Of a stretch of DNA of 64,000 nucleotides, positions 13,239-15,905 are shown piece by piece. Position 1 is the stretch's first letter, and each line of letters starts with the position of its first letter. The stretch is from Thermoplasmata archaeon (lineage in GTDB: Archaea; Thermoplasmatota; E2; JACPAO01; JAHFTW01). Where the stretch lies: assembly GCA_034667725.1 (NCBI GenBank), contig JAXDQS010000010.1, forward strand, positions 64,001 to 128,000, in the 5' to 3' direction. Below the pieces are notes generated by a model. That model did not search any database. It was not told the DNA's origin and worked only from the letters and a program-made list of their open reading frames with translations. The position numbers were made by a program, and so were the translations under genes.

Positions 13239-13435
13239 CGGAGTGCCCGGTGTGCCGCCGCGTGTTCCGGGACGCGCAGGGATGCGGCGGGCACCTCGCC
13301 ACCGTCGCAGACGACGCCCACAGCGCCCACCGCGCCGCCGTAGCCATCCGGCAGGCATTGACGCAGATGCCGCCGCGCCCCGGCGTGGCGGGGACCTTGC
13401 TGCGCGTCATCTTCGGCTTGAGGGCGCGGCCATGA
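13235..13435 (+). CDS. Small C2H2 zinc-finger protein
   Basis: MTECPVCRRVFRDAQGCGGHLATVADDAH; ATGA-coupled to the transposase. Confidence 0.7.
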   Translation: MTECPVCRRVFRDAQGCGGHLATVADDAHSAHRAAVAIRQALTQMPPRPGVAGTLLRVIFGLRARP

Positions 13436-15015
13436 TTCAGTTTGCCAGCCTGCGCGCCAACGTCAGCCAGCAGGCGCTTGAGATTTTGCAGCACCCCGAC
13501 GCGGTTCTCCATGTCGGCAAGAGCAAGGACGCCAGCGAAATCTACGAGGTGCTAGGCCCCAAGACCGGCGCAACGCGCATCACGGTCTGGAAGGGCCATG
13601 ACGACCTGTGGCATTGCGACGACGACCACCACGGCCATGCCAACCAGGACGCGCCGTGCATCCACCTCATAGTGGCGTTCGTTCGGCTCCAGCACATCGC
13701 CATGCCCAACACCGCCGCCACGGTCCACCGCAAGGGCCGCGACCGCGCCGCCGAGCGCCGCGCATGGCGCCGCATGGCCAAGCGGTTCCCCGAGGTCTTG
13801 CAGGCCATCCTAGAAGCCGGGGTGCCCGCCATCATGGCCACCCCCAAGCCCGAGCCTGAACCGAAGGACAAGCCGGAGCCCGGCGCGGAACCCGACGCCG
13901 CGAAGGAGAAGGGCGGCCACCCCAAGCGCGACCTAAGGGCCGTCGTCCACCAGGCCGTGATGCGCGTCCAGCAGCGCGTGAGCTTCGAGGCCAGCTCCGG
14001 CCTTGACAACCCGTGGGGCGCCTGCTGCGCCTCCACGCTCGAACGCTTCCACGCCGACCCCGACTCGGCGCGCATCATGGAAATGCTCGTGGCGCTCTCA
14101 ACGTGGCCGCTGCATGACCTGGAGCGCCGCCTCGACCCGGACGGAACCGGCTTGTCGCCGCAGCACTTCCGCGCCTACTACGACGAACGGTATCGCCGCA
14201 GCAACGGCAAGAAGAAGCCGAAGAAGTCGAAGCTCGACAAGCTCCCGCCCAACGCCGTCTTGTCCGCCGTGGACCTTCGGCGCCGGGCGCGGGAAGCCGA
14301 GGCCGAGGCGAAGCGCCTCGCGTCCCTCTTGGAGAAACCCAGAAAGCATACCTGGGCCTTTGCGGAGTTCTTGTGGGGCTACGAGTCCACCGCCATCCTG
14401 TCTTACCACTTCCAGGATTCACCCTTCGGTGAGGCGCCGCGCTTTCTTGCCTTGCTGGAGCGGGCGCGCTTCATGCTGGAGGTCAAGGAGATTGGCGGCG
14501 ACAAGGCGTATGATGCCAACTACATCTTCCAATACGCCGACTATCACGGCATCGAGGCGCACATCAAGATACGCGACACCGGCATCCCCACCAACAGCGA
14601 CCACTCGAAGAAGTATCGCAAGGCCGCCATGCTCGGGAGCATCATGGACCCGGAGGGGCATGAGGCGAAGGCGAACCTGCGCAACAACGCCGAAACCGGG
14701 AACGCCGCCTTCAAGGCCCGACTCGGGGACGAAATCTATTGCAAGGGTCGTCGCCGCGATGGCAAGAAGGACGCCACCGCCCTTCAGGTCGAAGTCGGGT
14801 GCATGGTGTTGGCGTGGAACATCCAGCGCCTCATCCACATGGAAGAACGCCACCCCCCGACCGAGGACCGGCCCGGCGTGGTGGTGGACTTCACGGAAGG
14901 CGCCGAGCGCCTACGCTCGCGGCCGTGGCGCAGCCTATCGGACATGGAGCGCGAGCTTCGCAAGCGGTTCCCGCCCAAGGGCGAAGGGGGGGTGCGCGAA
15001 CAATGGAAACCCTAG
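13432..15015 (+). CDS. DDE transposase (IS4/IS5-like) with N-terminal SWIM-like zinc motif
   Basis: WHC..PCIHL; DGTG; GDKAYD; RNNAETGNAAFK matching R-x3-E-x6-K; C-terminal VLAWNI. Confidence 0.85.
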   Translation: MIQFASLRANVSQQALEILQHPDAVLHVGKSKDASEIYEVLGPKTGATRITVWKGHDDLWHCDDDHHGHANQDAPCIHLIVAFVRLQHIAMPNTAATVHRKGRDRAAERRAWRRMAKRFPEVLQAILEAGVPAIMATPKPEPEPKDKPEPGAEPDAAKEKGGHPKRDLRAVVHQAVMRVQQRVSFEASSGLDNPWGACCASTLERFHADPDSARIMEMLVALSTWPLHDLERRLDPDGTGLSPQHFRAYYDERYRRSNGKKKPKKSKLDKLPPNAVLSAVDLRRRAREAEAEAKRLASLLEKPRKHTWAFAEFLWGYESTAILSYHFQDSPFGEAPRFLALLERARFMLEVKEIGGDKAYDANYIFQYADYHGIEAHIKIRDTGIPTNSDHSKKYRKAAMLGSIMDPEGHEAKANLRNNAETGNAAFKARLGDEIYCKGRRRDGKKDATALQVEVGCMVLAWNIQRLIHMEERHPPTEDRPGVVVDFTEGAERLRSRPWRSLSDMERELRKRFPPKGEGGVREQWKP

Positions 15016-15905
15016 ACCCGAGCCGCCTTCATCGCCGCGTCCTTGCCGGGGCGCGGTGCATCCTCGCCGCCTCGGGTGTTGAGCGCGTGGACCCGGACCA
15101 TTACCGGGTCGCCGGGGCGCGGCCGGGAGCGGAACCGGTGCGCGTCTATCGCAGGGGCGGAACGTGGCGGTGCAGCAGCGACCGCCGCCACCACGCGGCG
15201 CAGCCGTGCGCACACATCCTGGCGGTCTTGGAGGTCGTGGGCGCCGTGCGCCTTCCGGCCACCGTGAGCCCCATTGCGGAATCGGCGCGGCGGGACGCCT
15301 TGGAGGCCGAAGCGGCGCGCCTCTTGCCGGAACGCCTGCCTGGGGTCTTGGCGCGTATGCTCGACGCCAGCCCCGCCGCGGCGCCACAGGCGCCGGGCAA
15401 GGGGCGCCCCAGGTGCAGCCCTATCGCGGTGGCGCATCAGGCCGTCATGCGCGCCGCCACGCGGGGCACCCTCAAGTCGGCGGGAGCCTATGCGCCTGTG
15501 AGCCGGGCCACCGTGCGCCGGTTCCTGGCGGAAGGCAAGACCGACGCGCTCCTGCGCGCCATGAAGGATTGGACCTTGGCCGCCGCCCGGCCCCAGGACG
15601 CCACCCGCCCCGACGCCCTCAACCGGGGCGCCTTGGCGTTCTCGACGCCCCTCGGCCCGCTCTTGTTCCTGGCGTCGTGGACGCCAACGTATGGGCTTCT
15701 TGCGCGCCTGGACCCCATGCCCTCGGAGCCGGTCATCGAGGCGCCCGGCGCCGAGGAAGCGGCCCGGCGCTTCACGGCGCTTCTGGGCGCGGAGCTTGTG
15801 AGCCGCGACCCGGCGGCCTTGGCGAATGAGGCCCTTTGCGCGGCCCTTGCCTGGAACCTTGCCCGGCTTGTCGTGGTGGACCTGGAACGCGGCGGGACCG
15901 CGTAG
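15003..15905 (+). CDS. Transposase paralogue lacking the catalytic core
   Basis: Colinear with 13432-15015 (WRC..PCAHI, GRPR, HQAVMR, LGAELVSR, LAWNLARL) but no DGTG or DKAY. Confidence 0.72.
   Translation: METLDPSRLHRRVLAGARCILAASGVERVDPDHYRVAGARPGAEPVRVYRRGGTWRCSSDRRHHAAQPCAHILAVLEVVGAVRLPATVSPIAESARRDALEAEAARLLPERLPGVLARMLDASPAAAPQAPGKGRPRCSPIAVAHQAVMRAATRGTLKSAGAYAPVSRATVRRFLAEGKTDALLRAMKDWTLAAARPQDATRPDALNRGALAFSTPLGPLLFLASWTPTYGLLARLDPMPSEPVIEAPGAEEAARRFTALLGAELVSRDPAALANEALCAALAWNLARLVVVDLERGGTA

Follow-up and report, generated by a model that had tools for sequence, protein, structure and literature searches.

The window, meaning the whole 64,000-nucleotide stretch of Thermoplasmatota DNA analyzed in this article, contains a cargo transposon in which two transposase-like genes, here called A and B, follow each other in overlapping frames (Table 1). 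A encodes a transposase with all catalytic residues in place, and B encodes a shorter homologue from which the catalytic core is deleted. Cargo genes, two zinc-finger ORFs, and a non-coding repeat region precede the pair.

Table 1. Features of the cargo transposon in the window (positions of the window unless a contig is named) and its delimited relatives
Feature	Position	Strand	Description
Left target-site duplication	5854..5861		8 bp, GGGCGGGG
Cargo transposon	5862-16581		10,720 bp; contains A and B
Left TIR	5862..5878	+	17 bp, two mismatches with the right TIR
Left subterminal repeat	5935..5963	+	GGCCAAAA-GTGTG units; direct orientation relative to the right-end copy
Cargo ORFs	6011..10883	-	~5 kb; most begin with a signal-peptide-like or lipobox-like stretch
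First C2H2 zinc-finger ORF	11588..12088	+	Pro/Ala-rich; weak zf-C2H2 matches
Non-coding repeat region	12087..12876		Five GACCCT-GG/CG-AGGG copies in both orientations; within the genome only here
Second C2H2 zinc-finger ORF	13235..13435	+	66 aa; stop overlaps the start of A (ATGA)
A, SWIM-HTH-DDE transposase	13432..15015	+	527 aa; codons of D237 at 14140, D357 at 14500, E421 at 14692
Lys/Arg-rich helical insertion in A	14194..14346	+	Between RNase H strands 1 and 2; typical of the A clade
B, core-deleted transposase homologue	15003..15905	+	300 aa; SWIM finger, long helix, GRP-HTH, three-stranded remnant, C-terminal helices
Candidate small passenger ORF	16155..16517	+	Hydrophobic stretch; slot occupied by different genes across loci
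Right subterminal repeat	16472..16500	+	90% identity with the left copy, same orientation
Right TIR	16565..16581	-	
Right target-site duplication	16582..16589		Second copy of GGGCGGGG
Delimited SWIM-DDE cargo transposons	G131:C4, G131:C43, G136:C24, G138:C2, G136:C17 (L074-L087)		Short TIRs mostly starting GG

Ends, insertion site, and cargo of the element

The ends of the element were located through homology with two related loci, which extends about 570 nt beyond B. A search of the first 30 kb of the window for TIRs combined with target duplications ranked the same interval top. The GGGGGCACC start of the left TIR is common to the left end of a second A+B element on contig C1 of the same genome and to the right ends of two further loci, L002 and L003, and the GGCCAAAA-GTGTG repeat also occurs at these three ends. 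The target duplication would measure 9 bp instead of 8 if the left end dropped one G of its run. In five genomes of the same genus, the flanking host genes stand at most ~1.5 kb apart with no such element between them. A clean excision joint was not seen when the contigs of two DNA runs were compared. One sequencing run, which may be the window's own source, carries A and B on a single contig with zero differences; hence, misassembly in that run does not account for the missing core of B. The sequencing run with the best match derives from a soil metagenome, and the named relatives are Thermoplasmatota MAGs. No Rfam matches were obtained between positions 5000 and 25000, and no tRNA genes were found within the window. 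Inspection by eye suggests a tRNA-Asp-like gene ~100 nt beyond the left end of the C1 element (G000:C1 ~271925-271997). A mini-element of ~100 bp on another contig of the genome (G000:C10 ~274668-274763) joins a left-end-like part to the right TIR, with no target duplication seen.

The cargo has a GC content of 0.60-0.67 (6500-9000) compared with ~0.71 for the genome. In both elements of the genome, it is mostly made up of secreted or lipoprotein-like ORFs (on C1 at 265565-271685), and the C1 cargo gene closest to the zinc-finger module has an HTH-like C-terminal domain. Three cargo genes of the window are preceded by a 41-nt motif (6689-6729, 8065-8105, and 10908-10948) that is absent elsewhere in the genome and may be read as a shared promoter or a cassette junction. 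The ORF family upstream of A combines a C2H2 finger, a Pro/Ala-rich linker, and a C-terminal hydrophobic helix (both ORFs of the window; L001 8143-8679; L005 351-1592; L108 8871-10004), by which its members are possibly membrane-anchored DNA-binding proteins. They usually overlap the following transposase or dead gene by ATGA. Homologues of the second zinc-finger ORF stand 5' of both full transposases and core-deleted proteins that occur alone, and a zinc-finger ORF is often present 5' of the transposase in the wider SWIM-DDE family. The C1 copy, and this copy only, contains tandem repeats of ~70 nt with a conserved AGGAGCAACTGGC core between the zinc-finger ORF and A (L001 7748-8146).

An intact transposase and a core-deleted homologue

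Protein A consists of a SWIM-like finger, a GRP-type HTH region that is altered, and an intact triad D237/D357/E421, all three residues being invariant across 46 homologues. Its AlphaFold (AF2) model shows an RNase H fold (pLDDT 88), and the top Foldseek rows of this model are Tn5 transposase (E 3e-3, probability 1.0). The IS5 family NF033579 is the best family for 46 of 46 aligned members, and 39 of them match PF01609; A itself, at 40 bits (E 2.7e-10), stays below the curated cut-off of 140, and a Pfam scan of its sequence alone gives no match. Clusters combining SWIM and DDE_Tnp_1 are present in the ESM Atlas. The four A proteins are distinguished by the distance from the first Asp to the next conserved His, which amounts to 67-76 aa with 28-32% Lys and Arg. 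Elsewhere in the family, the median over 41 members is 29 aa, and two of these contain an insertion of similar length and different sequence. For the insertion in A, AlphaFold predicts helices at residues 246-258, 267-270, and 279-300. Judged by sequence and model, A is best read as the enzyme that catalyzes transposition of the 10.7-kb, IS5-like cargo transposon.

The frames of A and B are both open, and the ATG of B lies 13 nt inside A. BLASTP aligns the two proteins with 25% identity over the N-terminal 277 columns (E 4e-12) and returns a second, C-terminal match (E 5e-5). B retains the SWIM-like ligands C57..C69-x-H71, GRP (134), HQAVMR (145), LGAE (261), and LAWN (282). The missing block extends from after strand 3 up to the Glu-bearing helix and includes the second Asp; B measures 115 aa between the HTH helix and the C-terminal NL motif, as opposed to 210-260 in full transposases. 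The DGTG motif and the GDKAYD segment are gone, and so are R and K of the R-x3-E-x6-K signature. The third-position Glu E251 occurs only in the window copy, with G and Q in two others. Going by these residues, no triad can form in B, though a possible first Asp persists: D204 ("RPD") lies near the first-Asp position and does not vary among the four B copies. In the AF2 model of B (pLDDT 90), which draws on an alignment with many full transposases, three strands and the C-terminal helices remain. The structural matches of this model are the Tn4430, Tn5, and piggyBac transposases (Z 10.2, 8.7, and 8.1) and a SWIM domain (Z 6.2), and the Pfam scan of B gives a sub-threshold SWIM match only. The predicted A+B complex received a score of 0.00 and a mark of 0.32, values without bearing on binding either way. 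An earlier note on this DNA had described the retained motifs of B, its uninterrupted frame overlapping the stop of A, and the Lys/Arg-rich helical insertion after the first Asp of A, and each of these was located; the two catalytic segments that it had reported as lost from B are absent too, with D204 left near the first-Asp position.

Conservation and ancestry of B

The A+B pair is present at four loci, namely the window, C1, L002, and L003; one genome supplies two of them and a single sequencing run the other two. A phylum-wide search of 401 genomes revealed no further pairs, and a metagenome scan with the B alignment gave no matches. The 13-nt overlap is kept at all four loci, and the two proteins yield matching four-taxon trees. 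Fusion of A and B by a programmed -1 frameshift was rejected: the junction heptamer differs among the four loci, and no slippery site is conserved.

The ML omega of B is 0.094 (GY) or 0.15 (MG), the exact value being model-dependent at its high, coding-type GC3 of 0.84-0.92 and every estimate lying far below 1. Setting omega to 1 lowers lnL from -2816.0 to -3003.8, a cost of 188 log units. Pairwise counting yields a dN/dS of 0.26-0.34 for B and 0.14-0.47 for A. The individual domains of B have omega values of 0.06-0.17, the core remnant and the C-terminal helices included. B is under purifying selection in every domain, and since all copies have the deletion in common, it was the dead form on which this selection worked. 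On C1, B ends after about codon 225. The C1 element keeps its left TIR and has no right TIR, and seven of the eight left-flank (target-duplication) bases recur at the break in B; in the simplest reading, a later deletion took the end of B along with the right end of the element.

Sequence searches led to 13 core-deleted proteins in total. In a tree built from the columns outside the deletion, 12 of them form a clade (99/94) and all 13 do so at 82/59, with A standing apart; the weakly placed member is P0058 (L070), a long branch. A and B are themselves on long branches of ~1.0 substitution per site each, and forcing them into one clade is marginally rejected (p-AU 0.045). In the N-terminal region common to these proteins, the sequence identity of B is 26% with A, averages ~37% with ordinary family transposases, and lies at 37-45% with the other core-deleted proteins. 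According to these sequence comparisons, B is not a duplicate of A but a member of an older core-deleted lineage. In P0079, a partial family member, the catalytic core was seemingly removed by a different, independent deletion.

Nine core-deleted proteins are unpaired, and the gene context was viewed for eight (P0087, on a 1-kb contig, was left out). At all eight solo loci, the dead gene stands directly 3' of a zinc-finger ORF. No full transposase occurs within 10 kb on either side at L006, L108, and L110, nor on the short contigs that carry the others. The genome G126 (contigs C48 and C49) is a case in which the host of a solo locus has a full transposase elsewhere. Four solo proteins have an omega of 0.10. 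Columns that are invariant across the dead proteins comprise the SWIM ligands, GRP, and the HTH helix and no catalytic positions, and the recognition helix is similar in B and the solo proteins. A right-end-like motif, GG.YGCGTTCC, lies 3' of the solo proteins at five of the eight loci and differs from the GG.GGCACC of the A+B ends; it was derived from the same loci, which makes its shuffle figures post hoc. A left end or target duplication of the solo elements was not found within 10 kb. A conserved non-coding module of ~800 bp with GCCT repeats and inverted segments is located 5' of the zinc-finger gene (L006 7995-8750, L068 5990-6930, L108 8105-8870, and L111 1-730). A version of the upstream module common to the window and the solo loci was considered on the basis of one 41-nt BLAST match; nhmmer gave no support, and hence, a common DNA backbone is not claimed. 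Neighbors of the solo genes are of defence type and possibly represent their cargo: a Wadjet-like cluster, NYN, DNA methylase, HNH, SLFN/AlbA, and kinase (L006 159-7992, L068 1792-4959, L108 1-6325, and L110 1550-7335). Downstream of the dead gene, L005 and L006 have an AbrB/MazE-like ORF.

Ordinary family transposases lack a nearby B at ~15 loci. Five of these loci could be delimited end to end (Table 1). They span 5.9-12.6 kb with 9-bp duplications and contain no B; the TIR pairs are less certain in three of the five, where 4 of 17 positions mismatch. The transposition chemistry, thus, needs no B family-wide, and B is dispensable for most of the SWIM-DDE family. These data bear on the earlier note's view of B as a maintained, partnering paralogue. 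That B is maintained and not decaying is borne out: its dN/dS is nowhere near 1, and it is present at every A locus, truncated in a single copy that has lost its right end. "Paralogue" is apt in the broad sense, with the reservation that B groups with the solo core-deleted proteins and not with A. A role as dedicated partner is weakened because B-like proteins are equally constrained without an adjacent transposase and because other family transposases do without B.

Possible roles of B and relation to known systems

B probably serves to control or assist transposition. By analogy, it may be an end-binding, non-catalytic regulator, a negative one similar to KP or Inh; we favor this explanation tentatively, with slightly less than even confidence. 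B would be translated through coupling to the stop of A and would fold into a compact SWIM-HTH-minicore protein, whose GRP-HTH would occupy end, subterminal, or promoter sites. It may also enter mixed oligomers via the retained C-terminal helices. In this manner, B would, like KP or Inh, restrict the assembly of productive transpososomes. Repressors of the KP type retain the DNA-binding domain but no working transposase (PMC12393704), and Tn5 Inh together with the transposase forms inactive complexes (PMC4265352). The A clade most likely would have joined an already existing zinc-finger/dead-protein module. The solo relatives are as constrained as B without a transposase in cis, so that the function appears independent of a cis transposase, which fits a diffusible regulator. 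Regulation fits less well with the ends of A+B elements being unlike the solo motif despite the similar recognition helix, and the presence of B beside all four A-clade transposases and the long branches of both proteins also suit a co-evolved positive partnership.

Such a partnership would make B a positive, non-catalytic subunit of a heteromeric transposase that sits on the subterminal direct repeats or takes the place of structural protomers; A would depend on it, and the solo relatives would recruit full transposases in trans to non-autonomous elements. The common overlap at four of four A loci, the agreeing trees, the long branches, and the altered HTH and clade-specific insertion of A all point this way, as do the direct subterminal repeats at both A+B ends, the apparent 8-bp duplication compared with 9 bp in the five single-gene relatives, and the varied gene contexts of solo proteins with a family-like right-end motif at five of eight loci. 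A precedent exists in the PgmL proteins, which are devoid of the triad, interact with PiggyMac, and are required for excision (PMC6143343). However, close single-gene relatives transpose without B, A retains all domains of its own, the 8-versus-9 bp call hangs on the G run, and the B lineage was conserved apart from A beforehand; we consider a positive subunit unlikely. It is equally doubtful that the system as a whole is an IS5-like heteromeric transposase of an active DDE enzyme and an anciently inactivated homologue, whose dead lineage also recruits an enzyme in trans for transposase-free cargo elements; this would be an archaeal, still-mobile counterpart of PiggyMac/PgmL. B could instead have its own job in the zinc-finger operon, either in transcription control of operon or cargo or together with the membrane-anchored zinc-finger protein, and travel with A, without interaction, since A entered the module. 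The position directly 3' of a zinc-finger ORF at every solo locus examined, the conserved ~800-bp module upstream of it, and the fact that B is not the sister of A agree with such a job. Still, the overlap is preserved over 25-45% protein divergence, and the core remnant and C-terminal helices are constrained like the HTH, beyond what bare DNA binding needs (fold stability could account for this), so we consider it improbable to a similar degree. Least credible by far is that B is a decaying duplicate or the relic of a nested insertion, now functionless. The C1 truncation and a frameshift close to the C terminus of the solo protein P0008 may suggest decay, which is already contradicted by dN/dS, ML, and per-domain omega: omega is far below 1 on the post-deletion branches, the GC3 is of the coding type, the architecture is common to 13 proteins, and the C1 cut with its recurring flank bases coincides with the loss of the right end.

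Compared with known systems, A shares with IS5-like elements (NF033579; Pfam DDE_Tnp_1, N-terminal SWIM) the DDE triad in an RNase H fold, R-x3-E-x6-K, short TIRs, and a target duplication, here 17 bp and 8 bp long. Unlike IS5, which is compact and encodes transposition functions only, the window element measures 10.7 kb and contains ~5 kb of cargo, a zinc-finger ORF 5' of A, and a further transposase gene that is dead. To our knowledge, it is also larger than any tIS. The definition of a tIS or non-composite cargo transposon (one active transposase and one end pair with passenger genes between; PMC9330008) fits the window element and its relatives of 5.9-12.6 kb, with the difference that the dead paralogue is an extra conserved gene. 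A is best filed near the IS5-family transposases, within a transporter-type element. Its ends, target duplication, and both genes are now defined. In Thermoplasmatota, the SWIM-DDE family also mobilizes cargo of 6-13 kb flanked by short TIRs.

Inh of Tn5/IS50 lacks the N-terminal DNA-binding domain. The earlier note's likening of B to Inh is, thus, the wrong way round: Inh is made from an internal start of the transposase gene itself, whereas B has a gene of its own and is truncated the opposite way, keeping SWIM and HTH without a catalytic core as in the P-element KP repressor. IS3-family OrfA and IS1 InsA are element-encoded, DNA-binding, non-catalytic modulators, made as N-terminal products of the transposase gene without frameshifting; unlike in these, the A-B junction has no conserved slippery site. 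All non-catalytic modulators of prokaryotic DDE elements that we know of (Inh, OrfA, and InsA) derive from the transposase gene itself. B resembles Inh in being a non-transposing relative that one element encodes alongside its transposase and that might enter mixed dimers (PMC4265352). With KP, it shares the internally deleted transposase, in which the DNA-binding domain is kept and the catalytic domain disrupted (PMC12393704). KP, however, is a recent deletion derivative of the repressed element and resides on separate copies, whereas B is ancient, stands in tandem with A, and falls outside the derivatives of A by its grouping with the solo dead proteins (99/94; A+B clade marginal at p-AU 0.045); its repression is putative.

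A description of a tandem active and core-deleted transposase was not found in the open-access literature, and term look-ups in a 2026 archaeal IS survey found no such arrangement (PMC13343696). The literature searched likewise held no separately encoded, selection-maintained lineage of core-deleted transposases that occurs both in tandem with an active enzyme and alone. A likeness in conservation is provided by PgmL1-5 of Paramecium, transposase homologues with an incomplete triad that, as B, are kept by selection beside an active enzyme, PiggyMac (PMC6143343). The PgmLs are eukaryotic proteins domesticated by the host, for which binding and necessity have been demonstrated, whereas B has lost part of the fold beyond residues and is retained as a dead enzyme inside a mobile archaeal element.
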